From contig NZ_LN885086.1 in the NCBI RefSeq assembly GCF_001458695.1, forward strand, positions 2,850,001 through 2,882,000: DNA of 32,000 bases. Reading direction: 5' to 3'. The position numbers were made by a program, and so were the translations under genes. This document shows, piece after piece, positions 1 through 23,184 of this stretch; position 1 is the stretch's first letter; the number at the start of each line of letters is the position of its first letter. The notes below the pieces were generated by a model. That model was not told the origin of the DNA. It worked only from the letters and a program-made list of their open reading frames with translations, and did no database searches. The stretch is from Candidatus Nitrospira inopinata (GTDB lineage Bacteria > Nitrospirota > Nitrospiria > Nitrospirales > Nitrospiraceae).

Positions 1-1014
1 TATTGAGTTGTACCGCTTCCACATCTTCTCTGACTTGTGACCAACAATCTTCATCGCGGTTGCTGTATCCACACCGGCGCGTCGTAGGTTTGTCGATGCA
101 CAATGACGGAGATCATGGAATCTAAAGTCAGTTATTCCAGCATCTCTCAATGCGGTCCTGAAGGATCGGCTGATACGTTGAAGCGGTCGGCCCTTGTAGG
201 TGAAAACGTGGTTATTCGACAGACTACGAACCTTAGCCAGGCGTTGGAAGGTTGCGCGAACGTCTGGCGTCATGGGAATACGTCGGCCTGTTTTCGTCTT
301 GGTCTCATGACTGCGAAGGGTGATGAATCCCCTACGGAGGTCAACATGGTCCCAGGTCAGAGACACAATCTCCCTGAATCGCTGGCCCAGTTGGTAGGCC
401 GTTAAGAGCACCGGGCGGAGGTGTGGCTTCGCGGCGTGATGTAACCGGCTCCATTCGTCCTCGGTCAACACTCGGTCCCGCTCGTTCTGTGGGTTGGGTA
501 TGGTTACCCGTGAAGCAGGGTTAGCCTGCAGTAGTCCTCGCTTGATGGCCACGTTCAAGCAATGCTTCAGGGCGATGTGATCATGGTTGATGGTCTGAGT
601 GCTGGCCGGTTTGCCATTTGGCTTCTTTCTTTGGCTGCGGAAAGCTTCTATGTCTTCCGGTCGGATCTCAGAGAGGATCTGATGACCGAAGAAGGGTATG
701 AGGTGGGTGTTGATGCTATGGGAACGGCCAATGAAAGAACGAAGCGTCCTCACGCTCTCAAGCTCAAGGTAGGCCATCGCCCATTCCTTGAACAACGTAG
801 GCTTGGCTTGTTCGGTTTTCTCGTGACCAAGTAGCAAGCGAGTCTTCACCGCTGCTTCCATCTCTCTGGCAACAGTCTTATTGAGACACCCCACCTTCCA
901 GCGTTTCCATCGGGCACCGGGTACACCACTCGCGAGGACCAATGATTTTCCGTCCGCACTTTCGATCACCGGAAACTCCACATAGTAACTATCCCGCCGC
1001 TTAGTGAGTCCCAT
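1..1014 (-). CDS. Tyrosine recombinase / phage-type integrase, 3' end beyond the left window edge
   Basis: Absent from the ORF track because its stop lies outside the window. My minus-strand translation from ATG 1014 stays open to position 1 (338 codons): MGLTKRRDSYYVEF...LTAYQLGQRFREIVSLTWDHVDL...ITDFRFHDLRHCASTNLRRAGVDTATAMKIVGHKSEKMWKRYNSI. It carries the R...HxLRH...GH...Y catalytic-core motifs of tyrosine recombinases. The plus-strand ORFs 103..405 and 562..834 are shadows of it. Confidence 0.85.
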   Translation of the reverse strand, partial: MGLTKRRDSYYVEFPVIESADGKSLVLASGVPGARWKRWKVGCLNKTVAREMEAAVKTRLLLGHEKTEQAKPTLFKEWAMAYLELESVRTLRSFIGRSHSINTHLIPFFGHQILSEIRPEDIEAFRSQRKKPNGKPASTQTINHDHIALKHCLNVAIKRGLLQANPASRVTIPNPQNERDRVLTEDEWSRLHHAAKPHLRPVLLTAYQLGQRFREIVSLTWDHVDLRRGFITLRSHETKTKTGRRIPMTPDVRATFQRLAKVRSLSNNHVFTYKGRPLQRISRSFRTALRDAGITDFRFHDLRHCASTNLRRAGVDTATAMKIVGHKSEKMWKRYNSI

Positions 1015-1198
1015 GGCTGTCTCTCCGTGGTGTGATCGTGTGCTGATCGATCCAGGCGTCCAGCTGAGCTTGCTTGAACTTCACCAGCCGTCCGATTTTG
1101 ACGTACCCCAGTTTCCTCGCGGAGACCCATCCGTACAGGGTCAATTTGGATATGCCTAAATACTTCGCGGCCTCATCCATTGTCAAAAGGTTATTCAT
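1001..1198 (-). CDS. Excisionase / AlpA-type helix-turn-helix DNA-binding protein
   Basis: 65 aa. MDEAAKYLGISKLTLYGWVSARKLGYVKIGRLVKFKQAQLDAWI matches the HTH_17/excisionase pattern. It overlaps the integrase start by 14 nt (1001-1014), consistent with a xis-int operon. Confidence 0.8.
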   Translation of the reverse strand: MNNLLTMDEAAKYLGISKLTLYGWVSARKLGYVKIGRLVKFKQAQLDAWIDQHTITPRRDSHGTH

Positions 1199-1519
1199 GG
1201 CGCTTCAGCAGCCCTTTTCTTCATGCACGACACATTTGGTCGATCGAACCGACCGACATACCTACACACCTCTCGCGAGTGGCACTTATGAGAGGGTTCA
1301 GAATTATTCACCATACCGAAAAGGTAGGGTAAGGGGCACAAAACCTGAGATCGTGGCGTTGGGTACACCATTTATTGGCCCTTCTCTCACCTTCACAATC
1401 GAAGGGACAGTGCTTGCCCCATGACACCTAATCCACAAGTGGGGCCTATCGTATGACCAACAGGCTCTCCGTCCACAACATGTTGCCGATCCCTTTCTTT
1501 TCTTCGATCAGCCCTCCAG

Positions 1520-1559
1520 TTGACAGCACTCCATAACCAATGTAACATTTTGTTACATG
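1520..1559 (+). promoter_or_regulatory. Sigma70-like promoter with palindromic operator; apparently leaderless start of the repressor gene
   Basis: TTGACA (1520-1525), 17-nt spacer, TAACAT (1543-1548). A perfect inverted repeat TGTAACA-ttt-TGTTACA (1541-1557) covers the -10 element and ends on the A of ATG 1557. There is no room for a Shine-Dalgarno sequence. Confidence 0.55.
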
Positions 1560-2099
1560 CAGCCTCATGAACTCAAACAGGTGCGGACTTCTCTCGGATT
1601 GACCCAGGACACCCTTGCGCAGACCCTCAATGTGACGAGGCAGACCATCAATCGGTACGAACAGAAGATCGTGCCGATCCCCACGACCGTCGAACTGGCC
1701 CTAATGCAACTCAGCTCCTCGCAGATTCAGCTGGCTGGGGTTGTCGCGGCAGGGGCGCCCATTGAACCGATTCCTCAGATGGAACGCGTCGAGGTTCCGA
1801 AAAGCATGGTCGGTCGTGGAGAGACCTTCGCCCTTCGGGTGAAGGGCATGTCCATGCAGGACGAAGGAATCTTCTCCGGTGATGTGGTCGTAGTTCAGAA
1901 GCAAGCCACTGCCCGCAATGGGCAGACCGTGATCGCCTTGGTGAATGGCGAGGCCACGATCAAGACCTATCACCGCAAGGGCAGCACGGTCGAACTCCTC
2001 CCTGCCAATGACGCTATGCAGCCGATCATCATCAAGCCGTCGGACAGCTTCCAGATCGAAGGCATTGTCGTCGGCGTCATCCGTCATCTCCGAAAGTGA
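1557..2099 (+). CDS. XRE-family HTH + S24 peptidase repressor (phage CI / LexA-like, self-cleaving type)
   Basis: The N-terminus LGLTQDTLAQTLNVTRQTINRYEQ is a Cro/C1-type HTH. The C-terminus has the S24 hallmarks: a VAAG|AP cleavage-site-like motif, GMSM (catalytic Ser) and ATIKTY (Lys). Confidence 0.85.
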   Translation: MQPHELKQVRTSLGLTQDTLAQTLNVTRQTINRYEQKIVPIPTTVELALMQLSSSQIQLAGVVAAGAPIEPIPQMERVEVPKSMVGRGETFALRVKGMSMQDEGIFSGDVVVVQKQATARNGQTVIALVNGEATIKTYHRKGSTVELLPANDAMQPIIIKPSDSFQIEGIVVGVIRHLRK

Positions 2100-2118
2100 G
2101 GCCTCGGCTGTTGGCACC

Positions 2119-3303
2119 ATGGACCGCCAAATTGTCTGCTTTGGGATTCCTGCCTTCGAAGTCGCTGTCGCGCGGTTGCATGATCCCAGCCTCTCGACGC
2201 GACCAGTCGCCATCGCTCCATTAAATACCCCTCGGGCATGTCTGCGTGAGGTCTCAGCTGAAGCCGAACAAGAAGGTCTTGGGATCGGAATGTCCGTCGA
2301 GCAAGCACGACGGATCTGTTCTTCCCTGCACGTCCTTTCCCCGAATCCTGCTGGAATCCGTACGGCGGATGAGTCGTTGCTTCACATCGTGAGCCGCTAT
2401 GCTCCGGTCTGGGAACCAGTTCAGCCAGGGTCCTTCGTGATGGATGTGACCGGAACTGGTCGACTCTTCGGACCTGCGTATGACATCGCGACAAAGGTCC
2501 AACATGAAGTCCTTGCTCAATATCGCCTCGACGGGGTCGCCGGTGTGGGGAGCAACAAGCTCGTGGCTCAGACTGCGGCGACGTTGATTCAGCCGTCAGA
2601 ACTGTATGATGTCCGCCCAGGGTCGGAGCCGGTGTTCATGGCACCACTGTCGGTGGGCACCCTGCCGGGCTTGCAGCGGCCTTGCATGCGGCAAGTGCTA
2701 ACGCGGCTCGATGATCTGAACCTCGATACGCTCGGTGACGTGGCGGAGAGTCCCGTTGACGCGTTGGAAGTGGCGCTGGGGGACTATGCCGGACAACTCT
2801 CCCGCTGGGCGCTGGGGATTGATTCATTGCCGGTGTTGCCACCGTCGAGTCAGCCCCGGCTCGAAGAGACGGTCCTTCTCGATCCAGATGAAATCGATGA
2901 TCCCGTGCTGACCGGTCGATTGCTCGACGCGCTACAACGGCTCTGTCGAATGCTGCGGAGTCAGCGTCGCGTCTGTGGCCGTCTGTCCCTCACGATCCGC
3001 TATAGCGATCACATTGAGGTGACCAAACACAAGCACCTCACACCTGAGACCTGTTGGGAATATGACCTGTCTTCCGTGGTGCTATTACTCTTTCAGAAAT
3101 GCATGCGTCGGCGGATTCGCTTGAGAACCATGACTTTGAGCGTGACAGGCCTAGCTGAGTATACCGAGCAAGGTGCCCTCTTCGATACCCGATCCCTCGA
3201 CGACCAGCGTCGGCAGGAGCGGGCCAAGAAGCTCGCCGTCGCGCTCGATCAGCTCCATACCCGTTTTGGCGAACAGTCCATTCGCTATGGGAGGAGTGGG
3301 TAA
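2119..3303 (+). CDS. imuB: Y-family DNA polymerase-like protein lacking catalytic acidic residues (ImuB-like)
   Basis: The ORF-track frame is 1945..3303. The plausible start is ATG 2119 (MDRQIVCFGIPAFEVAVA), 19 nt after the repressor stop. It shows Y-family (DinB/ImuB) fold motifs. GIP replaces the DMD of the DinB N-terminal motif, and GSFVMDVTG replaces SIDEAYLDVTG. The gene lies directly upstream of dnaE2. Confidence 0.8.
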   Translation: MDRQIVCFGIPAFEVAVARLHDPSLSTRPVAIAPLNTPRACLREVSAEAEQEGLGIGMSVEQARRICSSLHVLSPNPAGIRTADESLLHIVSRYAPVWEPVQPGSFVMDVTGTGRLFGPAYDIATKVQHEVLAQYRLDGVAGVGSNKLVAQTAATLIQPSELYDVRPGSEPVFMAPLSVGTLPGLQRPCMRQVLTRLDDLNLDTLGDVAESPVDALEVALGDYAGQLSRWALGIDSLPVLPPSSQPRLEETVLLDPDEIDDPVLTGRLLDALQRLCRMLRSQRRVCGRLSLTIRYSDHIEVTKHKHLTPETCWEYDLSSVVLLLFQKCMRRRIRLRTMTLSVTGLAEYTEQGALFDTRSLDDQRRQERAKKLAVALDQLHTRFGEQSIRYGRSG

Positions 3304-6300
3304 GTGGCCTTCGTCCACCTGCACACGCATTCGTCCTTTTCGCCGATGTGGGGCGTGCCCACGCTGGATGCCCTCTGTCAGGCAGCTCAATCACAAGGAC
3401 AAGACTATCTCGCGCTCACCGATACCAACGGACTCTATGGCGCGATCCGCTATCTCGAAGTCGCGCACGAGCATGGACTCAAGCCGATCTTGGGCGCGGA
3501 ACTCGTCTCCGATCAGCACCGGGCCGTGTTGCTCGCGAAGAACTTCACGGGGTACGGCAATCTTTGCCGGATTCTGTCCGCGCGTCACTGTGATGCGTCC
3601 TTTGAGTTCATCGAGACCGTGGCGCGGCATCGCACGGGACTGGTGTTGCTGTCTGATGATCCTGTCGCGGTGACTGCGTGGCAGGCGGAGTCGGCAACGG
3701 ATCTCTACATCGAGCTCACACCGGGTCTCACCTTACAAGACACGGTCGCAGTGAGCCGCCGACTTAGACTGCCGCCGGTAGCCACCACCCGCGCCGCGTT
3801 CCTTCACTCGGCCGACTATCAGGCCCATCGGCTCTTACGGGCCATCGCCGAAAATACGACGCTCTCACGACTCAAGCCCGACCACTGTGCGCTCCCCTCT
3901 CACTCGCTGATGCCGGAACCCGTGCTCACGCGACATCTGCCTCACGTGCCGGAAGCCATCGCCAACACGCGGCAGATTGCCGAACAGTGCCACACCGAGT
4001 GGGACTTCAAACAGACTATCTTTCCCTCCTTCCGTCGGCTCTCCTCAGGCGCCGCCTTTGAAACACTACACCGCAAGACCTACGAAGGCGCCATCTGGCG
4101 CTATGGTGCCTTGTCTCCCGTAGTCCGAGAGCGCATCGAAAAGGAACTCATGGTGATCCGTGACAAGGGCTATGCCGACTACTTTCTCGTGGTGGATGAG
4201 ATCGTGCGGCAAGCCCCACGGACCTGTGGTCGAGGGTCCGCTGCGGCGTCAATTGTCTCCTATTGTCTCGGCATCACACATGTGGACCCGATTCGGCACA
4301 ATCTCCTCTTTGAGCGGTTTCTCAATCCCGGTCGGCATGATCCGCCCGACATCGACGTAGACTTTCCCTGGGATGAGCGGCCTGCCATTCTCGAATGGGT
4401 CTTTCAGCAGTATGGGCATCAGCACGCCGCGATGGTCGCCAATCAGAACCAGCTGGCCACACGTGCGGCCTTGCGCGAGATTGCGAAGGTCTATGGCCTG
4501 CCGGCCGGTGAGATCGGCAAGGCGTTGAACTTTCTCCAGCGACGAGCGGACTTCGTCGATGTGCAACCGGGGATGACGGTGAAAGACTGGGCGCGGGATG
4601 TCTGCAGGGCCTTGAACCTCAGAAGCCCCTGGCCGGAGATTCTTTACTGGTCAACGCAATTGGACGGCCACTTCCGAAATCTGGGGCTCCATCCTGGTGG
4701 CGTCGTACTGGTCTCCGATGAGATCCGACGCTATGTTCCGGTTGAGATCTCCGCGTCAAACCTGCCGGTGATCCAATGGGAGAAAGATCAAACCGAAGAC
4801 GCGGGACTCGTCAAGATCGATCTCTTAGGCAATCGCTCGCTCGCCGTCATCCGTGACGCCATCGTGGCCATCACTCGCAACACGGGACATGTCATCGACT
4901 ATGCGACCTGGGACCCACTCACTGATCCAGCCACCAATGACTTGATTCGTCGGGGTGAGACGATGGGCTGCTTCTATGTGGAATCTCCCGCAACCAGGCT
5001 GTTACTCAAGAAGCTCTGGGGTGGAATGCCACCAGAGCGACGTGCCGTGGCCGATGTCTTTGAGTATCTCGTGGTGGTGTCGTCGATCATCCGCCCCGCG
5101 GCGAATGTGTTCGCCGATGAATTTGTGCGTCGGGCCCATGGGCAGCAGTATCAGTCACTTCATCCCTTGCTTGATGAAGTACTCGCGGAGACCCACGGCA
5201 TCATGGTGTATCAGGAAGATGTGATGAACGTGGCGGCCGCCTTGGGTGGACTCTCGGTTGAAGATGGTGATCAGCTTCGGAAGGTGTTGAGCAAGAAGCA
5301 CAAGGAACGGCAACTGCGAGACTATCAACGCCAGTTCTATCAGGGAGCGATGGCCCGTGGTGTGAACTGTCGCGTGATCGACTCGATCTGGGCCATGGTC
5401 ATGAGCTTCGCGGGCTATAGTTTCTGTAAGCCGCATAGTGCGAGCTATGCGCAAGTGAGCTTCAAGGCCGCCTATCTCAGAGCGCATTATCCGGCGGAAT
5501 TCGTTGCCGCCGTCGTGAGCAATCAAGGCGGCTATTACTCGGCCTTTGCGTATTTGTCAGAGGGACGACGGATGGGCCTCACCATCCTGCCGCCGGACAT
5601 CAATGCGAGTGTGTGGACCTACACCGGATCAGAAACCACCGTTCGCATGGGACTGATGCAGATCAAAGGCCTTCAAGAAAATCTCGCCAAGCAGCTCATT
5701 GCCGAACGAGAACAGCACGGTCCCTACCGATCGCTGTCAGATTTTCTGAGTCGCGTGAAACTGGACTACACCCAAGCCAAATTGTTGATCAAAGCCGGAT
5801 GCTTTGATTCGATTGCCGGTGAACTCACCAGACCAGCCCTGCTCTGGCGTGTCTTCGCTGCGCAGGCGACCAAGCCACCGAGTTCCATCCCAATCCCAAC
5901 GGAGTATTCAGCCCAGAAGACACTACAGCACGAACTCGCCCTCTTCGGCTTCCCCTTATGCTGTCATCCGCTCGACCTGTTCAAGGAGGCGCTGGCTGCG
6001 ACCCCACACACGCTCGCGAGAGACTTGGATCAGTATGTGGGACAAGAAGTCACCCTCATTGGGTGGCTCCTGACGGAGAAGATCGTCTCCACGAAGAAAG
6101 GCGAGCCGATGGAGTTCATGACGCTGGAGGATCAGACCGGGATGTATGACGCCACCGTGTTTCCCACCACCTACAGGCATTACTGTCATCTGCTCGCGAC
6201 GAACCAAGCCTATGTGGTGACCGGTTTGGTGGAAGAGCATTTTGCGACCGTCACGGTCACCATGAAAACACTACAACTCCTGACCACCGGTGGAATCCCG

Positions 6301-6336
6301 GCATCGAGTGAGCCGCTTGAGGAGCTAAGCGTGTAA
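3304..6336 (+). CDS. dnaE2: Error-prone DNA polymerase III alpha-like subunit DnaE2 (ImuC)
   Basis: 1010 aa with a GTG start abutting the imuB stop (TAAGTG). It has the PHP domain motif FVHLHTHSSFS, a Pol III alpha core (e.g. KPHSASYA) and an OB-fold-type C-terminus. Size and imuB linkage are typical of DnaE2. Confidence 0.9.
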   Translation: MAFVHLHTHSSFSPMWGVPTLDALCQAAQSQGQDYLALTDTNGLYGAIRYLEVAHEHGLKPILGAELVSDQHRAVLLAKNFTGYGNLCRILSARHCDASFEFIETVARHRTGLVLLSDDPVAVTAWQAESATDLYIELTPGLTLQDTVAVSRRLRLPPVATTRAAFLHSADYQAHRLLRAIAENTTLSRLKPDHCALPSHSLMPEPVLTRHLPHVPEAIANTRQIAEQCHTEWDFKQTIFPSFRRLSSGAAFETLHRKTYEGAIWRYGALSPVVRERIEKELMVIRDKGYADYFLVVDEIVRQAPRTCGRGSAAASIVSYCLGITHVDPIRHNLLFERFLNPGRHDPPDIDVDFPWDERPAILEWVFQQYGHQHAAMVANQNQLATRAALREIAKVYGLPAGEIGKALNFLQRRADFVDVQPGMTVKDWARDVCRALNLRSPWPEILYWSTQLDGHFRNLGLHPGGVVLVSDEIRRYVPVEISASNLPVIQWEKDQTEDAGLVKIDLLGNRSLAVIRDAIVAITRNTGHVIDYATWDPLTDPATNDLIRRGETMGCFYVESPATRLLLKKLWGGMPPERRAVADVFEYLVVVSSIIRPAANVFADEFVRRAHGQQYQSLHPLLDEVLAETHGIMVYQEDVMNVAAALGGLSVEDGDQLRKVLSKKHKERQLRDYQRQFYQGAMARGVNCRVIDSIWAMVMSFAGYSFCKPHSASYAQVSFKAAYLRAHYPAEFVAAVVSNQGGYYSAFAYLSEGRRMGLTILPPDINASVWTYTGSETTVRMGLMQIKGLQENLAKQLIAEREQHGPYRSLSDFLSRVKLDYTQAKLLIKAGCFDSIAGELTRPALLWRVFAAQATKPPSSIPIPTEYSAQKTLQHELALFGFPLCCHPLDLFKEALAATPHTLARDLDQYVGQEVTLIGWLLTEKIVSTKKGEPMEFMTLEDQTGMYDATVFPTTYRHYCHLLATNQAYVVTGLVEEHFATVTVTMKTLQLLTTGGIPASSEPLEELSV

Positions 6337-6354
6337 CCAGTACACTCCCTCTCC

Positions 6355-7257
6355 ATGCCCCTCTCACCGCTGATTCGGTTCGGAACTTCCACCTGGACCT
6401 ACGAAGGCTGGCAAGGACAGGTCTACTTCAAGAAGTACGCGAAGACCACCTTTGCGCGGGAATGTTTGGGAGAATACTGCCAATACCTCCACAACGGTGA
6501 ACCCTGCTTTCGCACGGTCGGCAATGATTCCACGTTCTACCGTCCACCGACAGCCAACCAACTACGACACTATCTCAATCAGATACCCGAAGATTTTGAG
6601 ATGTGCTTCAAGGTCTGGGAGGAGATCACGATTCCGGCCTATGCGAAGCAAGCTCGGTATGGCACGAAGGCCGGACAACCGAATCCGCGCTTCCTGGATG
6701 CAAAGCTCTTCAACGACCTCGTATTGACCCCCTATCGAGAAGCGAAGTTTGAACCACACACCGGCCCATTCTTGTTCGAGTTCCAACGGCACGGGATGTC
6801 GGGTGAGGAGTTCTGCTCGCGACTGGACACTTTCTTCAGCCAACTCCCCAGGGACTTTCTCTATGCGATCGAAATTCGCAACGCGGGCTTGCTGGGTCCT
6901 GACTATCGCAAGGTCTTAGAGAATCACGGAGTCGCGCATGTCTACAACCATTGGTCCTACATGCCGCCGTTACGGGAGCAGCATCAACGGATGGAGGAAC
7001 GCTTCACGGCACCCTTCACGGTCCTGCGCCTCCTGACGCCGCTTAAGATCTCCTATGAAGCCGCGAAGAAACGAGCAGAACCGTACACGAAGATTGTGGA
7101 AGAGCTGCCAGAGATGCGGCGAGACGCCGTGGAGCTGGTGAAGAAGGCGGTCGGAGAAAATCGCCGGGCGTACGTTTTGGTCAACAACCGCAGCGAAGGG
7201 AACGCGCCGTTGACGATTAAGGCCCTACGGAATGCGCTGCGAGACGCGCCGCTGTGA
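6355..7257 (+). CDS. DUF72 (YecE/UPF0759) family protein
   Basis: 300 aa. FGTSTWTYEGWQGQVY ... VGNDSTFYRPP ... IPEDFEMCFKVWEEIT ... AIEIRN matches the DUF72 pattern as recalled from E. coli YecE. It starts 18 nt after the dnaE2 stop. Confidence 0.75.
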   Translation: MPLSPLIRFGTSTWTYEGWQGQVYFKKYAKTTFARECLGEYCQYLHNGEPCFRTVGNDSTFYRPPTANQLRHYLNQIPEDFEMCFKVWEEITIPAYAKQARYGTKAGQPNPRFLDAKLFNDLVLTPYREAKFEPHTGPFLFEFQRHGMSGEEFCSRLDTFFSQLPRDFLYAIEIRNAGLLGPDYRKVLENHGVAHVYNHWSYMPPLREQHQRMEERFTAPFTVLRLLTPLKISYEAAKKRAEPYTKIVEELPEMRRDAVELVKKAVGENRRAYVLVNNRSEGNAPLTIKALRNALRDAPL

Positions 7258-7686
7258 GGGTTTGTAAGCCTTTCCGACCCGTCCCCATAAGTCCTCGTCA
7301 GAACCGTGAAACCCCGCTCCAGGAGCTGCGCATGGCTGGTTTTCGCGCTCAGTTGGGCTCAGTCCAATTCAGGTGAATTTGGGTGAATTTTGCTGTCACG
7401 GGAACACGTAGGGTTAATATCTAGAGACGTCGGATTCTCATGAAGCAGACTGACCATTCGTGCGAAGCGCTCGTCTCGCCGTTCCATGTCGTGGTCGCTC
7501 GTTTCGCCTGTCTGGTAGACTCGTTTGACGCGTGGGCCGGTCACATCTCATAGGGCCACAGTCCTCTTTCGGATATAGGCACTGAGATGGGCTTGCACCT
7601 GCCCATCCATGACCAGCGTTTCAATCCCGAACTCTTCGCCTCTCACCCATCGCACCATCCCCGCTGTCACCGAGATCTGTTTGCGC

Positions 7687-7716
7687 GTCGAGCAGTCTCG
7701 CGTTGGACTGCTCGAC
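7687..7716. terminator. Stem-loop 3' of the multicopper oxidase gene (candidate terminator / 3'-end stabiliser)
   Basis: GTCGAGCAGTC (7687-7697), 8-nt loop, GACTGCTCGAC (7706-7716). This is a perfect 11-bp stem, 35 nt downstream of the stop at 7751. There is no clear U-tract on either strand. Confidence 0.4.
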
Positions 7717-7750
7717 GCCTTTAAGGTTGGTCTTCCTCTCCCACTCTAGC

Positions 7751-9913
7751 CTAGTAATCGACGCCCATCACATAGGTTCTTGCCGCACCTCGTGCAGCGC
7801 TGACTTTAATCGGCCGCATCATGTCATTGTCCTCATGGTCGAGGATATGACAGTGCCATACGAATCCATGCGTACCGGCATCTGGATCAAAGGCATAGTT
7901 TCCGGCCAGGCCGGCTGCCGTGTCTGTCGGCGCGAAGCGTACGGCGATACGAGTGACGTGGCCCGGATACACGATCACCGTATCTTTCCATCCGGCTTCG
8001 TTGGCTTCCGGAGGATGTACGGGGCCATGCAGGTATGGCTGAATATTCGGATTCCCTCCGTATTTCAATCCAGAAGCGACGGAAGGCGCATACGTCAACG
8101 GTGGACCATCGCCAAACATAGAGGTGCCGCCGGGGAACGACCCCTCGTAGGCCTTATTGTACCGGTTCAGATGGATCTTCTGCCGATTGATCAACTGAAC
8201 CTGCGTCAAGTGCGTGTGGATCGGATGGGCATCGGCTGTCAGGTTGACGATTTCCCAGACCTCGGTCTCGCCTTCAGCCGGCAACTCGGACACATATTCC
8301 GTTATGCCTCCCACCGTGACGGCCGTAAAATCCGTTCGGATCGTTCCATCGGCACGTTTGCCGGACATCTTCGTATTGTTCAGCAGCAATTCAACCATTT
8401 CCATTCCGCCAGCACCCATCATGTTGTTCAGGGTGAGTTGGCGCGTTTTCGAAGGAACGACGGCCAGCGTCCCCGTGGCCGGGTTCACCAACCGACGCAT
8501 GGGTGGGCGGAGCGCGCCGCCATGAGCCGGGTTGTAGCTCGCGTCGGCCCCTGCCAACGTGGACGGTCCCACTCGGAACTGAAGAATGCGTCCCACCGTC
8601 GCCCCGTCGGGTGGAGCCCCATCGGGGAATGGTGCGCGGCCGTGATTCTTCAAAATCAGCGTTCGGCCCTCTAATCCTGAAAAGTCGATAATGATGTCGG
8701 CGCGCTCACCAGGCATCACGGTCAGCTTGTGTAGCCGAACCGGCGCATCGAGATACCCTCCGTCGGTTGCGATCTGCCATAGATGCTGTCCGTGCAAGGA
8801 GAGTTCATACGTACGCGCGTTTGATCCGTTGATGAGGAGGAACCGATAGCGCCTGGCCTCGACATTCAGATAGGGCCAGACCTTGCCGTTCACCACAATC
8901 GTGTCGCCGAAGAACTCCATCATCCAGAACGGGTGCTCCGGGTTGGGCCCCATGTTGGGGAAATAGAGCTGCCCGGTCGTATCGAACGTGCGGTCCTGAA
9001 TCACCAGCGGAATAATATAGTCTACGGAGCCTGCGGTGCCTTGCTGCAACCCGATCGGATGCAGACCGGCCGGTAACGTCAGCGTTGGATCAACGATTAG
9101 ATAGCCCCCTGCCAACCCCGCATAGACGTTCAAGCGTGTCACGCCCAACGCATGGTCATGAAACCAGAGAGGAGCCGCCTCCTGCTTGTTCGGATAGCGG
9201 TACATCGCTCCATTCGCCACCGCACCGGCTTTGCTGTAGTACGAATGGCCTCGGTAGGCTCCATCACTGGTGAACCAGGCGTTCGGATTTCCATCCAGCA
9301 CCGGCGGCACCTCCCCTCCATGCAAATGGGGAACGGTTGGGACTGGGCCGGCATAATTCGACGCGCAGACCCCCACCGGCGGTTGGTTTTCAGTGACCGC
9401 ATCCGCACACCTGTTCGCTTCACCGTTCAGCGGATCGGCCCAGTCAAGAGTCTGATCGGTCGAGGTCTTCCACGCCGATAGTTGGCTCGCCGCCGTATTG
9501 GGCAGACTGTTGATGTACTGAATTTCGGTCGGAGTTCCACGCGTCGCGACGAACACCGGCCCAATGTAGGTTGGGAACGGCGTCCCCGATCCAGGACACG
9601 TTGAACCGTTGCGGTAGCCCCAGACGTACGTTCCCGAGTAGGCGGGAGCGGAAGACGCCGGTACGAATGTCGAAGGCATGACGTTGGCCTTGAACTCACA
9701 CATCGAGAGTGTTGCTGATGCCGTGGTGATGGTCTCGATGGTACCGCCCGCCACAGCGAGAAGAGGCAACGGGTCCACGAACTGCGGAATCTCACTGCCC
9801 GGTAACGGTGCTGGCTGAGCTGTGGCCGGAGTGTAGGAGACCAGCGTCAGTGCCACCAAGAGGTAGTGAGCCGGAGACCAACTCCTTATGATTTTTTCTC
9901 GAAGGCATCTCAT
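7751..9913 (-). CDS. Multicopper oxidase (three-domain, CotA/CueO/bilirubin-oxidase-like), secreted
   Basis: All four Cu-ligand motifs are present: HLHGG, WFHDHA, HPIHTHL and HCHILDHEDNDMM. I prefer ATG 9913 (MRCLREKIIRSWSPAHYLLVALTLVSYTPATAQ, signal-peptide-like), preceded by GGAGGTG. The track ORF extends to 9949. Confidence 0.9.
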   Translation of the reverse strand: MRCLREKIIRSWSPAHYLLVALTLVSYTPATAQPAPLPGSEIPQFVDPLPLLAVAGGTIETITTASATLSMCEFKANVMPSTFVPASSAPAYSGTYVWGYRNGSTCPGSGTPFPTYIGPVFVATRGTPTEIQYINSLPNTAASQLSAWKTSTDQTLDWADPLNGEANRCADAVTENQPPVGVCASNYAGPVPTVPHLHGGEVPPVLDGNPNAWFTSDGAYRGHSYYSKAGAVANGAMYRYPNKQEAAPLWFHDHALGVTRLNVYAGLAGGYLIVDPTLTLPAGLHPIGLQQGTAGSVDYIIPLVIQDRTFDTTGQLYFPNMGPNPEHPFWMMEFFGDTIVVNGKVWPYLNVEARRYRFLLINGSNARTYELSLHGQHLWQIATDGGYLDAPVRLHKLTVMPGERADIIIDFSGLEGRTLILKNHGRAPFPDGAPPDGATVGRILQFRVGPSTLAGADASYNPAHGGALRPPMRRLVNPATGTLAVVPSKTRQLTLNNMMGAGGMEMVELLLNNTKMSGKRADGTIRTDFTAVTVGGITEYVSELPAEGETEVWEIVNLTADAHPIHTHLTQVQLINRQKIHLNRYNKAYEGSFPGGTSMFGDGPPLTYAPSVASGLKYGGNPNIQPYLHGPVHPPEANEAGWKDTVIVYPGHVTRIAVRFAPTDTAAGLAGNYAFDPDAGTHGFVWHCHILDHEDNDMMRPIKVSAARGAARTYVMGVDY

Positions 9914-10801: not shown

Positions 10802-11122
10802 TTACGACACAAGAAGGTTGAAGCGAAGTGAACGGTATTCTTTATCCGCGCTGGATTTAAGATCAGCCGGTAGCGTCAACAATCGGTGTACTTCCTTACG
10901 CGTCAATCCGCTGAGGGTCGTAATTCTCGATACCGACTGCTTCTTGCCTGCGATCCTGAACTCGGTGTTCGCGACCTCCACATAGACCCGCTTGACGAGT
11001 TCAGCGCACGTTGGATGGGAAACACTGTTTCGCAAGAAGATCCTCACCAACGGTCGCCGCAGGTGACCAATAGCAGCGGAAAGTGCTTGGACTGAGCCAT
11101 GAACCTTCACAATTGTTGCCAT
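10802..11122 (-). CDS. Hypothetical protein with possible HTH (SVSRITTLSGLTRKEVHRLL)
   Basis: 106-aa ORF, co-directional with its neighbours, filling the gap between the ATPase and the Cys/Met-rich gene. No family recognised. Confidence 0.4.
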   Translation of the reverse strand: MATIVKVHGSVQALSAAIGHLRRPLVRIFLRNSVSHPTCAELVKRVYVEVANTEFRIAGKKQSVSRITTLSGLTRKEVHRLLTLPADLKSSADKEYRSLRFNLLVS

Positions 11123-11242
11123 GGTGAACTCACGTACATATAAGACCGGCCTGATCCGTCTGCGCGACGACCAATGGGACCGTCCCGACTGTCATCCGAT
11201 TGGCTTAATTCTCGCTTCTTCTGAACCGCCTCTTCTCTGCGT

Positions 11243-13948
11243 TCACCTCCCCCCTCGAGAACGCGCCGCTTTCCAGATCTCCATCGCCACCAGCGGCAAG
11301 ATCCCGATGCCGAGAACAAGAAGCCAATGTTCGGTGTCAAAGGGCACGACGTCGAAAATCGAATGGATCGGCGGAGTAAGTACAATGACGGCTTGCAGCG
11401 CCGCCGAAAGGGCAACGGCCCCGAGCAGCGGTCTATTTGTCAGGAATCCAATCTCGAAAATGGACCGGCGGTCGCTTCGATTATTGAAAGCATGGAAGAG
11501 TTGAGCCGTGACGAGGATCGTGAAAGTCAGCGTGCGGGCCCGCTCGAGGTTCAAGTCCATGCCGTACAAACAGTACACAAACGCCCCGAGCGTAATCAGT
11601 GCCAAAAAGGAGCCCTGGGCGAACAACATGAGAAACCGGTCTTTCGTCAGGAATTGTTCCGCTGGTGGTCGGGGTGGCCGTCTCATCAAGTCGGGATCCT
11701 TGGGATCAACGGCGAGTGCCAACGCAGGGAGGCCGTCTGTCACCAGATTGATCCAAAGAATTTGCACCGGCAACAACGGCAGCGGAAGGGCAAACAGCGT
11801 GGCGAGCAACATGAGGAGAATCTCGCTGATGTTGCAGGAGAGCAGATAGAACACCGCTTTTCGGATATTATCGAAGACGGCTCGTCCCTCTTCTACCGCT
11901 GCGGCAATCGACGCGAAGTTATCGTCGGTGATGACCATGTCAGAGGCTTCTTTCGTGACGTCTGTCCCGGTGATGCCCATGGCCACACCGATATCGGCCG
12001 CTTTCAGCGCCGGCGCGTCGTTGACCCCGTCGCCGGTCATGGCGACCACCGCCCCTCGCCGCTTCCAAGCCTTCACGACCCGGAGCTTGTGCTCAGCCGA
12101 CACCCGAGCGTAGACCGCAGTGCCGGCAACTCGTTTCTCCAGCTCGTCATCCGACAGCTGGTCCAGCTCTGTACCGGAGATCGCTTGCGCACCCGTTTCC
12201 AAAATCCCTAAGTCGTGCGCAATGGCAATCGCCGTGTCCTTATGGTCGCCTGTAATCATGACCGTCCGAATGCCCGCAGTCCGACAGGTCTCCACGGCCG
12301 CCTTGGCTTCCGGTCGGATCGGATCTTTCATGCCGACCAACCCTAAAAAAGTTAAGTCGTGCTCCAAGCTGGTGGCTGTATACGCGTCCGGCAGGATGTC
12401 CAACGGCCGCATAGCCACGCCGAGGATCCGCAGGGCTTGCGAGGCAAATTGCTGATTGATGGAGAGGATTTGTTGACGGATCTCCTCCGTCAGCGCTGTG
12501 ATCTGCCCGTCACGGGTCATCCAGGCGGTGCAATCGCGCAGCAGCACATCCGGTGCGCCTTTGACGTAGGCGACAGGACCGGAGGCGGCGCTCCGGACCA
12601 TGGACATCTTTTTACGTTCGGAATCGAACGGCACCTCACCAAGCATCGGATTATCACGATCCAGATCGGCTTTCGAGAGTCCGGTCTTCGCCGCCACGAC
12701 GAGTAGGGCACCCTCTGTCGGGTCGCCCAGCACCTGCCAGGCGAAGGCTTCCAGACGCAATTCGGCTCCGTTACACAACACGCCAGCCTGCAGGAGGGCC
12801 GTGAGCCCCGGATACGGACTTCCGTTGGTCGGTCCTTCGTTCACACGGATCTCACCAACCGGCGCATACCCTTCGCCCGAGACAGTCAAGACCTCACCGC
12901 CGAGGTACAGGCGAGTCACGGTCATCTCGTTCTTGGTGAGTGTGCCCGTCTTGTCCGAGCAGATCACGGTTGTTGACCCCAATGTTTCCACTGCCGGCAG
13001 CCGTCGGATCAAAGCATGGCGTTGCACCATGCGGGTGACGCCCAGCGCCAGTGTGATGGTGACTACTGCGGGCAAGCCCTCTGGAATGGCCGCAACGGCT
13101 AAACTCACCGATGTAAGAAACATCATGATCAGTGGCACGCCGCGGAGCATGCCCAGGAGGAACACGGCTCCTACAATCACCAGCGAGAGCCACAGCAAGG
13201 TGTGTCCGAGCTGTTCGAGTCGGCGCTGGAGCGGCGTCTCTTCTTGCTCCGCCTGCGCCTCGCGATGGATCATCGCCGCGATCTTTCCCAGCTCGGTCAG
13301 GGGTCCGGTGGCCGTCACCAACGCCCGGCCTTTTCCAGAAACGGCGATGGTGCTCATAAAGAGCATGTTGCGACGGTCCCCCAAGGGCACCTCGGTCTGA
13401 GAAATTAGCTCGGCGGACTTGCTGACCGGCGTGGATTCTCCGGTCAGAGAGGCTTCTTGTGTCTGGAGGCTCGTCGCATAGATCAACCGGCTGTCGGCTG
13501 GGATCCGATCTCCGGCTTCCACTTGGATGAGATCGCCGGGAACCAGTTCGCGGGCCGGGATCGACCGCGCGACTCCCTCGCGGATCACCCGCGCAGTCGC
13601 GACCGACAGTTTGCGGAGTGCTGCCAAGGAGCGTTCGGCGCGGAACTCCTGGACGAATCCTAGGATGGCATTGAGGACCACAATCGCAACAATCGCGGCC
13701 GCGTCGATCCATTCTTGCAGCAAGCCAGATACGAGCGCCGCGCCGATGAGGACCCAGACGATCAGACTCGAGAATTGCGCCAGGAGGATTTTGAGAGGGG
13801 AAGGTGGAGGGGCTTCAGGCAATTCATTCGGCCCCACGGTCGAGAGGCGATGCTCCGCCTCACGTTCAGTCAATCCATCATTGATGTCGGAGTCTAGTTC
13901 ACGTTCCAGCGATTCGAACGTGAGCGTGTGCCAGCCGTTGGATTTCAT
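11243..13948 (-). CDS. P2-type (Ca2+/cation, SERCA/PMCA-like) P-type ATPase
   Basis: 901 aa with TGES, IPEGLPAVVTITLALG (TM4 PEGL motif), DKTGTLT, TGDHKDTA and TGDGVNDAPALK. There is no CPx motif, so it is not a P1B heavy-metal pump. Confidence 0.9.
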   Translation of the reverse strand: MKSNGWHTLTFESLERELDSDINDGLTEREAEHRLSTVGPNELPEAPPPSPLKILLAQFSSLIVWVLIGAALVSGLLQEWIDAAAIVAIVVLNAILGFVQEFRAERSLAALRKLSVATARVIREGVARSIPARELVPGDLIQVEAGDRIPADSRLIYATSLQTQEASLTGESTPVSKSAELISQTEVPLGDRRNMLFMSTIAVSGKGRALVTATGPLTELGKIAAMIHREAQAEQEETPLQRRLEQLGHTLLWLSLVIVGAVFLLGMLRGVPLIMMFLTSVSLAVAAIPEGLPAVVTITLALGVTRMVQRHALIRRLPAVETLGSTTVICSDKTGTLTKNEMTVTRLYLGGEVLTVSGEGYAPVGEIRVNEGPTNGSPYPGLTALLQAGVLCNGAELRLEAFAWQVLGDPTEGALLVVAAKTGLSKADLDRDNPMLGEVPFDSERKKMSMVRSAASGPVAYVKGAPDVLLRDCTAWMTRDGQITALTEEIRQQILSINQQFASQALRILGVAMRPLDILPDAYTATSLEHDLTFLGLVGMKDPIRPEAKAAVETCRTAGIRTVMITGDHKDTAIAIAHDLGILETGAQAISGTELDQLSDDELEKRVAGTAVYARVSAEHKLRVVKAWKRRGAVVAMTGDGVNDAPALKAADIGVAMGITGTDVTKEASDMVITDDNFASIAAAVEEGRAVFDNIRKAVFYLLSCNISEILLMLLATLFALPLPLLPVQILWINLVTDGLPALALAVDPKDPDLMRRPPRPPAEQFLTKDRFLMLFAQGSFLALITLGAFVYCLYGMDLNLERARTLTFTILVTAQLFHAFNNRSDRRSIFEIGFLTNRPLLGAVALSAALQAVIVLTPPIHSIFDVVPFDTEHWLLVLGIGILPLVAMEIWKAARSRGGR

Positions 13949-22640: not shown

Positions 22641-23184
22641 CTGACAGACAACACACTGCCGGAGCACACGCATTATTCTTCTCCTATGATTTCTATCCGG
22701 CTTCGCTGTTTCACGGCCGTGAGCTGACGTCGCTCCGACATGATTCCTTCGGGGGATGTCTTGACTTGATGCGCCTTCACGCGTTTCTGTCTCGTCTCCA
22801 GATCATGCCGGAGCCACACGCACCGGACGCCGGCCGGTGAAATGGCGACCCCTTGCTTGTGGAGTTCATTGGCCACGCGGACCGGCCCCCAAACGGGCTG
22901 ATCGATGGCCATCTGCACGATGGCGTGCTCGGTGGCGGATGACACCCGATTCTTCAAGAGTGGTTTCTTTCTTGAAATTTCTTGAAGCGCCGTTTCGCCG
23001 CCGTTCTCGTAGAGTCGCTTGAATCGATAGAAGCTATCTCGGCTATAGCCCATCAGCTGGCAAGCCTTTGACACATTGCCCAGTTGCTTCGCCAGTTCCA
23101 ACAACTTCAACTTCATCCTGATGAGCTTCTGCTCCGCCATCATGACTGCCACCCATGTGGGAAAATGCGCGGCCTGTCTGTCAG
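22641..23184 (-). mobile_element. Internally deleted IS remnant (candidate 10-bp terminal inverted repeats around a truncated transposase ORF)
   Basis: CTGACAGACA occurs at 22641-22650, and its reverse complement TGTCTGTCAG at 23175-23184. These flank ORF 22673..23152 by 22 nt on each side. Confidence 0.45.
22673..23152 (-). pseudogene. Truncated IS481-like transposase (N-terminal HTH part only, no DDE/integrase core)
   Basis: [56 protein letters not shown]...[37 protein letters not shown] matches, from memory, the N-terminus of an IS481-family transposase lineage. The ORF ends after 159 aa, before the catalytic domain would begin. Confidence 0.6.

Follow-up and report, generated by a model that had tools for sequence, protein, structure and literature searches.

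Why does an error-prone type of polymerase operon stand back to back with a tyrosine integrase in Candidatus Nitrospira inopinata, and does the repressor that heads the operon also govern the integrase? Both questions are raised by a 32-kb window (the whole stretch of DNA analyzed here) in which an integrase gene (int) and an excisionase gene (xis) are divergent from genes for a repressor, a Y-family protein, a DnaE paralog and a DUF72 protein. A sequence-only reading of this stretch had proposed an arrangement like a phage lysogeny switch. The window, whose counterpart is CZLC01000009.1 (GCA_001458715.1), about 178,416-210,415, was studied by listing its open reading frames (ORFs), by Pfam and NCBIfam scans, and by comparison with related loci (designated Lnnn; L001 extends the window leftwards, L019 and L180 extend it rightwards). 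Judged from sequence, positions 1517-7529 probably constitute a mutasome operon of the iPolY-DnaE2B-RecA type that is self-contained, regulates itself and responds to DNA damage, carried as exchangeable cargo beside an xis-int-tRNA-Arg module. The features of this cassette are as follows.

1520-1548, plus strand: sigma-70-type promoter TTGACA-17 nt-TAACAT (10/12 positions match)
1541-1557, no strand assigned: palindromic operator TGTAAC-ATTTT-GTTACA, which overlaps the -10 box and ends with the A of the ATG
1557-2099, plus strand: autorepressor, 180 residues (HTH_3 + Peptidase_S24)
2119-3303, plus strand: Y-family protein (iPolY), 394 residues (IMS + IMS_C)
3304-6336, plus strand: DnaE2B-type C-family polymerase, 1010 residues (PHP, DNA_pol3_alpha, finger, HHH_6 and OB domains)
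6355-7257, plus strand: DUF72 protein, the fourth gene of the operon (PF01904, E = 1.6e-30)
7261-7529, no strand assigned: conserved tail of the cassette, either non-coding or with a small ORF, found after DUF72 also in the non-integrase cassettes L023, L025, L028 and L040

The gene order that had been read from the letters (int, xis, divergent repressor, Y-family protein, DnaE paralog, DUF72) was confirmed at the same positions by the ORF listing and the domain scans. The four plus-strand genes are separated by gaps of only 19, 0 and 18 bp, the iPolY and dnaE2 genes abutting at 3303/3304. ORF and domain scans of the operon and the window revealed no imuA-like or RecA-like ORF, and neither ImuB nor ImuB-C. 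The G+C content is even over the whole window, and scans for tRNA genes and Rfam families detected no RNA genes within it.

The repressor combines parts of two regulator types. Its N-terminus is an XRE-type helix-turn-helix (HTH) at residues 5-44 (HTH_3/HTH_31), with no LexA winged helix, while the C-terminal two-thirds are LexA-like and have LexA structures as their best PDB matches (E = 6e-24). The TIGR00498 (lexA) profile is matched with 126 bits against a cut-off of 111, the match being limited to profile positions 74-202, and the PDB comparison gave no match of the repressor to CI or SetR structures at E <= 1e-3. Therefore, the protein is a hybrid of an XRE-HTH and a LexA-type C-terminal domain, and the earlier assignment to the CI/SetR type has to be replaced. 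The claim of an intact Ala-Gly cleavage motif with its Ser/Lys pair stands, as A65-G66, S99 and K136 align with A84-G85, S119 and K156 of E. coli LexA. The idea of an error-prone polymerase cassette under a self-cleaving repressor likewise survives as a prediction, with the repressor being LexA-type and the cassette imuA-less.

To place this repressor and its operon in context, 80 cassette loci were collected by a genome scan with one genome per species and a 7-sequence alignment as query, a 30-sequence alignment being too diverse for this purpose. In the window, the promoter at 1520-1548 is the sole promoter-like site in 900-2200, and the same scan detected no promoter-like site for xis. The palindrome at 1541-1557, already singled out in the sequence-only reading, is real: it is perfect and occurs once in the 32 kb, with a chance expectation of 0.4 matches at <=2 mismatches. 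In 6 aligned loci, neither promoter nor palindrome varies although their surroundings have diverged, and TTGAC is found at equal spacing across Nitrospirales. Among the 67 Nitrospirales loci with enough upstream sequence for an operator survey, about 60 have TGTNNC-N5-GNNACA at the identical distance from the ATG (-16), and the complete architecture TTGACA-17-[TGTNNC-N5-GNNACA]ATG likewise holds in about 60/67.

An indication of what binds this site comes from its variation. The inner operator bases vary symmetrically in both arms (TGTAAC/GTTACA, TGTGAC/GTCACA, TGTATC/GATACA), and the recognition helices of the repressors differ by half-site: TTRQTI or TTRMTI with TGTAAC, RRSII or RRTII with TGTGAC, and KRLAI or TRLTI with TGTATC. 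This covariation of half-site and helix is strong, if indirect, evidence that the operon is autoregulated, and the repressor almost certainly binds the palindrome at 1541-1557. Since the palindrome ends on the A of the ATG and no Shine-Dalgarno sequence precedes the repressor start codon, a leaderless mRNA is the simplest reading of the start.

The same survey bears on the idea that the repressor controls xis and int. A second operator was found near neither gene, in the window at <=2 mismatches or in all loci at <=1 mismatch; each locus has a single operator, and none lies in 1199-1520 or near int, contrary to the proposed control. The repressor is thus predicted to govern its own operon, with no sign of regulation of xis or int. 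As a separate observation, three tandem TGTGAC-N5-ATCACA near-palindromes with a spacing of 23-24 bp occur at L017 1133-1196 (equivalent to L021 2133-2196), where phage-like genes (terminase, HTH_17) precede a tRNA-Phe island; these may be operators of another repressor.

The polymerase pair can be assigned to a described class. In an alignment with E. coli DinB, the Y-family protein has lost all three catalytic carboxylates (D8 to G, D103 to G, E104 to S). A search of 1.8 billion cluster representatives returned 298 relatives at E <= 1e-30, and in the family alignment the catalytic acids are present in 0/30 aligned relatives, which are about 385-415 residues long. In the same 30 proteins, the clamp-binding motif QxxLF has an invariant Q351 and an L354 conserved in at least 90%; the window protein reads QGALF at 351-355. 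Their C-terminal tails share the consensus LxxALDxIRxRFGxxAV, and the tail of the window protein, KKLAVALDQLHTRFGEQSIRYG, fits both this family consensus and the RecA N-terminus pattern, as recognized by pattern and homology. The protein stops 39 residues past the clamp motif, and the ImuB-C beta-barrel domain is absent. By BLASTP it shares 41% identity with N. japonica SLM47932 over the full length (E = 8e-99) and 36% with the gbDinB2-like protein BCG45748 of Citrifermentans (E = 1e-70).

The DnaE paralog is 60% identical to N. japonica DnaE2B over the N-terminal 400 residues of the latter, the part available. It keeps the active-site motifs PDIDVDF at 348 and KIDLLG at 504, and it is without the tau-binding C-terminus. 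It reaches the cut-off of neither the DnaE1 nor the "error-prone" DnaE2 model of NCBIfam (572 bits against 939 for the latter), as expected of a group B protein.

These properties agree with published work. A RecA N-terminus motif has been described in Y-family proteins and proposed to bind RecA or ImuA (Timinskas & Venclovas, NAR 2019, PMC6511836). A 2026 survey by the same authors (NAR, PMC12926913) divides DnaE2 into groups A, B and X, describes DnaE2B genomes as devoid of imuA and imuB, and defines an iPolY-DnaE2B-RecA system with "gbDinB2-like" inactive PolYs. Its supplement includes AlphaFold models of iPolY-DnaE2B-RecA from Nitrospira japonica proteins and gives the same counts for N. 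inopinata, N. moscoviensis and N. japonica, namely DnaE1 = 1, DnaE2A = 0 and DnaE2B = 1. By its sequence features, the window pair belongs to this published class, within the gbDinB2-like group. Membership in a known ImuA-less class explains the absence of imuA, with RecA itself as the presumed third subunit. The operon is indeed without imuA, as had been noted, but the novelty attached to that absence is lost, since the type is published with a Nitrospira exemplar (PMC6511836; PMC12926913).

The fourth gene encodes a DUF72 protein, and DUF72 directly follows DnaE2 in about 33/80 loci, mostly in the genus Nitrospira. Solved DUF72 structures are TIM barrels and have been described as close relatives of UV-damage endonuclease, the binding site of Tm1631 has been likened to that of endonuclease IV, and members of the family are on record beside further polymerase operons of SOS type (PMC11791011, PMC3828134). 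The conserved fourth-gene place therefore suggests a role in processing damage.

Taken together, the operon could work as follows. In undamaged cells, a dimer of the XRE-HTH/LexA-type repressor would occupy TGTAAC-N5-GTTACA and cover the -10 box and its own leaderless start. RecA filaments on single-stranded DNA would stimulate self-cleavage of the repressor at A65-G66 via S99/K136, in keeping with its LexA-like domain, and this cleavage would free transcription of the four genes for the iPolY scaffold, DnaE2B, the DUF72 protein and the repressor itself. The scaffold would contact the beta clamp via QGALF and RecA itself, not ImuA, via its C-terminal RecA-N-terminus-like motif, and would bring DnaE2B to stalled primer ends for error-prone bypass, after the published AlphaFold-supported model. 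The DUF72 protein probably processes damaged DNA in the same pathway, a placement suggested by gene order only.

How closely the operon is tied to mobile elements can be judged from its distribution. Almost all of the 80 cassette loci come from Nitrospira, Nitrospiraceae or Nitrospirales, and hardly any of them lacks the repressor, iPolY or DnaE2. Cassettes of deeper clades occupy core contexts (uvrB divergently upstream, ffh-rpsP-rimM-trmD-rplS, ftsE), and in many close relatives the cassette lies downstream of serS. With an iterative recombinase profile, a tyrosine recombinase was found within 9 kb of only 11/80 loci, leaving 69/80 with none. Since many contexts are core ones and recombinases are rare, the cassette is primarily a chromosomal operon and the repressor is not primarily the switch of a mobile element; within Nitrospirales the operon is old and resides for the most part on the chromosome. 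These counts, along with the uvrB, serS and ffh-rpsP-trmD contexts, also speak against the lysogeny switch of the sequence-only reading. Beside these contexts it was observed that in L071-L086 (e.g., L080 6172-8169, 8319), which form a deeper clade of Nitrospiraceae, the repressor gene is immediately preceded by a divergent uvrB, so that a single operator in this clade may also affect an excision-repair gene.

In the window, the cassette adjoins an integrase module with the following parts.

1-1014, minus strand: tyrosine integrase "IntArg", its 3' end cut by the window edge (Pfam Phage_integrase, E = 3e-28)
1001-1198, minus strand: excisionase-type HTH protein of 65 residues, overlapping the start of int (HTH_17, E = 1.5e-14; TIGR01764 "excise", E = 7e-17)
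1199-1329, no strand assigned: conserved region upstream of xis, with 1329 as the outer edge of the int-xis module
1330-1516, no strand assigned: strain-specific filler of about 187 bp between the int-xis module and the cassette

The full int gene, which runs past the left edge with its last 36 codons only, encodes 373 residues at L001 8337-9458, and the R...HxLRH...H...Y residues are readable in the sequence. The leftward extension supplied both the 3' end of int and a tRNA gene, tRNA-Arg(TCT), which begins 15 bp beyond the int stop codon on the same strand. An intact tyrosine integrase adjoining a tRNA gene, a mark of genomic islands, is therefore present. In a metagenome scan for IntArg (79 loci), 55/79 have tRNA-Arg (TCT or CCT) behind int in the same orientation, and the conserved asmA-ahpC chromosome comes next. 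Among 12 IntArg loci compared, some with and some without the cassette, the homologous block starts 15-20 bp beyond the 3' end of the tRNA and extends to 1329 (1333 once) in 10; in 1 further locus it reaches -245 past the tRNA and still ends at 1329, and in L111, with a divergent xis, it halts at 1199. The filler at 1330-1516 is absent from L013, L017, L101, L102 and L173, and only 44 bp of it resemble L034; a repeated element was considered for this filler and rejected, no other copy having been found.

The only att-like repeats found lie on the far side of the tRNA. A perfect 47-bp direct repeat of the 3' part of tRNA-Arg(TCT), at L001 4508-4554 and 8245-8291 (window about -3936 to -153), encloses 3.7 kb between the tRNA and asmA that encode a PEP-CTERM protein and IS3- and IS5-family transposases and no integrase; L013 is without this insertion. 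In general, the tRNA-Arg repeats start in the anticodon loop, are 46-47 bp long and flank small insertions between tRNA and asmA. Islets bounded by 41-46-bp tRNA repeats were also seen in L126 (11159-12769) together with L127 (1.5 kb), and in L156 (7002-13516, two in tandem), and a second, convergent integrase of the same family lies just beyond the tRNA in L137, L141, L156 and L160. These islets and convergent integrases place the xis-int-tRNA unit upstream of an active integration hot spot.

The cassette itself behaves as a variable part of such loci. Cassettes with the operator type of the window and repressors at 90-97% identity adjoin three unrelated int/xis/tRNA sets: IntArg/xis at tRNA-Arg (window, L013, L024, L037), an unrelated 410-residue integrase with a 91-residue xis product overlapping the 3' end of tRNA-Phe (L017/L021, L033, L034), and a third integrase overlapping tRNA-Thr (L070). 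Additionally, the L015 cassette adjoins a type IV secretion cluster and mer genes; homologs of these secretion genes were found in none of the 80 genome loci. The region 1208-1329 is also 80% conserved in L017, the tRNA-Phe island with the other integrase. Between the window and L013, nucleotide identity is 89.6% over tRNA-int-xis and 84% over the cassette, in contrast to only 64-78% over ahpC/asmA, and homology ends at the DUF72 stop codon. At the protein level, L101 and the window share 98% identity in int and 58% in AsmA.

Beyond position 1329, nearly every related IntArg locus has different genes. The complete cassette stands next to xis in only 3 metagenome loci (L101, L102, L173), and repressor, iPolY and DnaE2 together do so in 3/39 IntArg metagenome loci with at least 9 kb of sequence. 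In L109, L161/L165 and L112 only a 3' piece of DUF72 is left beside xis, and in L110 only a 220-bp post-DUF72 tail. The variable presence among relatives that mobility would require is thus observed, the cassette being present, partly deleted or absent beside IntArg. Taken with the constant edge and the variable cargo, these remnants indicate that the cassette at 1517-7529 is a discrete cargo block that has been gained, lost and eroded at the edge of a hypervariable region. Of the "horizontally mobile" module proposed earlier, the exchange and the variable region beside int-xis are upheld, but no boundary of an element was found on the cassette side out to about 47 kb.

Several further observations concern the edges of the cassette. 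In L022 (2310-8205) and L037 (2337-8232), a 151-residue ORF and a protein of about 1,800 residues are inserted exactly between xis and the repressor; read by eye, the large protein has a CHAT-like N-terminal region and many TPR repeats. In L024 (13575-16968), which is tRNA-Arg-linked, adjacent tyrosine recombinases of 360 and 774 residues replace DUF72 directly after dnaE2. The same pair of secreted-protein-like ORFs (about 355 and 250-300 residues) occurs between dnaE2 and DUF72 or after dnaE2 in L026 (5700-7615) and L037 (13219-14999). Finally, the segment at 7261-7529 (about 220-270 bp) holds a possible 61-residue minus-strand ORF at 7359-7544, is common to serS-linked cassettes and persists beside xis in L110 after the loss of the cassette genes; a terminator region, a small RNA or a small protein are possible candidates for it.

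A different account of this adjacency treats the cassette as a resident chromosomal SOS operon and int/xis as a fixed fossil at a tRNA-Arg hot spot, with the proximity of the two being meaningless. Many Nitrospira do keep the order xis-int-tRNA-Arg-asmA-ahpC, their integrases being between 99% and 62% identical; such att repeats as could be identified enclose insertions beyond the tRNA, away from int; the G+C content is uniform over the window; and Ca. N. inopinata has a single DnaE2B, so that the window copy is its sole cassette. However, a fossil does not sit well with the same cassette type beside three unrelated int/xis/tRNA sets and the type IV secretion cluster of L015, with cargo left of xis that is nearly all genome-unique among closely related integrases, or with an int-xis far more conserved than the chromosomal flanks. 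Several genome bins also hold a second cassette in the serS context with a different operator. This account is accordingly considered unlikely.

A further possibility concerns bins with two cassettes, integrase-linked plus serS-linked or other. The island-type operator is TGTAAC-ATTTT-GTTACA and that of the resident serS-linked cassette is TGTGAC-ATTAT-GTCACA; because the operators differ, a recipient would gain an independently tuned second mutator, analogous to hetero-immune phage repressors. Extended to comammox and lineage II Nitrospira, the proposal would be that tRNA-targeting islands (Arg, Phe, Thr) bring along, in the cargo position nearest to xis, an entire mutasome with a regulator of its own, that the recipient thereby gains a second, independently tuned damage-inducible mutator, and that readout from the derepressed region might aid expression of xis and int. 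This broader proposal is put forward tentatively, with the balance of probability against it.

Less probable again is that the repressor is the non-canonical LexA of Nitrospira and commands a wider SOS regulon via TGTNNC-N5-GNNACA. A precedent exists in Bacteroidetes, where a non-canonical LexA with an XRE/CI-type N-terminus and an S24 domain acts as SOS regulator on dyad-N5-dyad motifs (PMC8565304), and in deeper clades the repressor gene stands back to back with uvrB, one of the classical SOS genes. Against such a regulon, no extra operators were found in about 19 kb around each of the 80 loci or in the 32-kb window, and where two cassettes share a genome, their differing operator specificities favor regulators private to each; a global role is therefore rated as quite improbable.

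Coupling of the repressor to excision is unlikely on the sequence evidence, and the full switch, in which repressor cleavage would derepress both the polymerase operon and the divergent xis-int as one mobile unit including the metal-resistance genes, is highly improbable: the divergent geometry with 358 bp between xis and repressor, the recurrence of the cassette as first cargo beside xis at three tRNA sites, the linkage of DUF6502 and P-ATPase genes to the cassette in a second island type and, as a weak hint, the 122 bp upstream of xis (1208-1329) that stay with the cassette despite another xis/int would fit it, but they are outweighed by the single operator per locus away from xis/int in the window and the 80 related loci, by the absence of an xis promoter-like site overlapping that operator, by the same repressor, operator and operon layout in the 69/80 loci lacking a recombinase, by the many IntArg loci that hold int-xis with unrelated cargo or a deleted cassette, and by the absence of att repeats around the int/cassette side to about 47 kb.

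Several points weigh against the mutasome cassette as exchangeable cargo beside xis-int-tRNA-Arg. The matching direct repeat that would define an element was sought to about window position 47,300, and none was found on the int/cassette side; an att repeat enclosing the cassette side was absent out to about 47 kb in the comparison of the window, L001, L013, L019 and L180. The tRNA-Phe, tRNA-Thr and tRNA-Ser loci likewise yielded no att repeats on the cassette side, and a search for repeats flanking the cassette itself (1150-7800) gave only chance-level 12-29-mers. The 5' end of tRNA-Arg faces int, which is not the classical orientation. The cassette-side far end of the island may lie beyond the sequence reached; an element with its own full copy of tRNA-Arg next to int would fit this geometry and predicts a second tRNA-Arg farther right. 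Horizontal exchange is deduced from identity contrasts and changes of context, and asmA may simply evolve fast. The metagenome-assembled genomes behind the observation of two copies per genome may be mixed bins. Within the operon, the RecA-N-terminus and clamp motifs were identified by pattern and homology to the published family, not by a dedicated profile; DUF72, whose role is read from gene order, is absent from the deeper clades; and operator binding, cleavage and induction, like the leaderless start and the complex formed with RecA and the clamp, are predictions from sequence.

The region to the right of the cassette extends the picture of the cargo. Its gene block with a link to the cassette and the accessions of flanking proteins are as follows.

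10802-13948, minus strand: DUF6502 protein and P-type cation ATPase (Pfam)
Flanking proteins, each matching its Ca. N. inopinata accession exactly: AsmA-like CUQ67896, CzcB-like CUQ67935, CzcA CUQ67934 (the integrase sequence is likewise found on the 3.295-Mb N. inopinata chromosome)

The genes at 10802-13948 are 82-91% identical at the nucleotide level to L017 14611-17185, downstream of the cassette in the tRNA-Phe island. The earlier suggestion that the metal-resistance island belongs to the same element is supported to the extent that DUF6502 and the P-type ATPase travel with the cassette in a second island, but the element boundaries were not found. From 7751 to 32000 and onward to about 47,300 (L019, L180), the region is dense in metal-handling genes, among them an unusually long multicopper oxidase (732 residues), a pair of P-type ATPases, a phosphorylase-like protein with a YHS domain and three successive RND efflux systems. 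Between 7751 and about 47,300 it contains no recombinase, no tRNA and no island end, and no conjugation genes were found within the window. At 22673-23152 (minus strand) lies an ORF of 159 residues with only HTH_28/29/32 domains, which we take to be an isolated N-terminal fragment of a transposase; it sits between a methyltransferase/phosphorylase block and a sigma-factor/RND block and may mark a module junction.

Candidatus N. inopinata is the model complete ammonia oxidizer and is slow-growing, and it may have an inducible mutator. Its sole DnaE2 system would be an SOS-type mutator located in a variable, metal-resistance-rich region, which bears on adaptation. The variants of operator and recognition helix provide a natural matched series of repressors and operators for the specificity of XRE-LexA proteins, and the set of operons offers a test system for the iPolY-DnaE2B-RecA mutasome and for DUF72. 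The general understanding of ImuA-less cassettes is unchanged by the finding.

Compared with known systems, the polymerase pair differs in nothing from the exemplars of the iPolY-DnaE2B-RecA class. In N. japonica (SLM47932/SLM47931) and Citrifermentans bremense, a dead PolY of about 395 residues with a clamp motif and a RecA-N-terminus-like tail is directly followed by a 1010-residue DnaE2B and, as in the window, imuA and ImuB-C are absent. The surroundings of the pair are what differ: in the available parts of PMC6511836 and PMC12926913, neither the XRE/LexA-type repressor with its leaderless operator nor the DUF72 fourth gene and the integrase-adjacent island context was found described.

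The canonical (lexA2)-imuA-imuB-dnaE2 cassettes of Pseudomonas, Caulobacter and Mycobacterium follow the same logic, in which an SOS-controlled, dead Y-family scaffold recruits a DnaE paralog; here, in contrast, ImuA and the ImuB-C domain are absent and the DnaE is of group B, not A. The operon of Deinococcus (PMC8072749) is likewise ImuA-less and LexA-led, and it pairs DnaE2 with an inactive Y-family protein. Experiments on that operon have demonstrated UV mutagenesis that depends on RecA/LexA, and some of its copies are on plasmids (reviewed in PMC8072749). However, it holds a standalone ImuB-C gene between imuY and dnaE2 (DnaE2X type), whereas here the genes abut, with no room for ImuB-C, and its repressor has a LexA DNA-binding domain where the present one has an XRE domain.

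Among mobile systems, the SXT/R391 integrative and conjugative elements (SetR, rumAB) and plasmid mucAB/impCAB similarly place a mobile, SOS-inducible translesion polymerase beside a self-cleaving repressor and int/xis. In those systems, transfer and excision are under the repressor, and the polymerase resembles Pol V; the present repressor, by contrast, is encoded inside the polymerase operon, mostly occurs without a mobile element and has no operator near xis/int, and the window lacks conjugation genes. The non-canonical LexA of Bacteroidetes (PMC8565304) resembles the present repressor in being an S24 self-cleaving protein with an XRE/CI-type HTH and dyad-N5-dyad sites that controls error-prone polymerase genes, and paralogs with diverged motifs are known there as well. 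It belongs to another phylum, and the likeness of the N-terminal domains is one of type; in the present case, the C-terminal domain is clearly LexA-like and autoregulation of a single operon is all that is visible. To these known systems, the Nitrospirales cassettes add an XRE-LexA hybrid repressor, an order-wide leaderless operator with covariation of helix and half-site, DUF72 as a member of the operon, and the occurrence of one cassette type at three integration modules.

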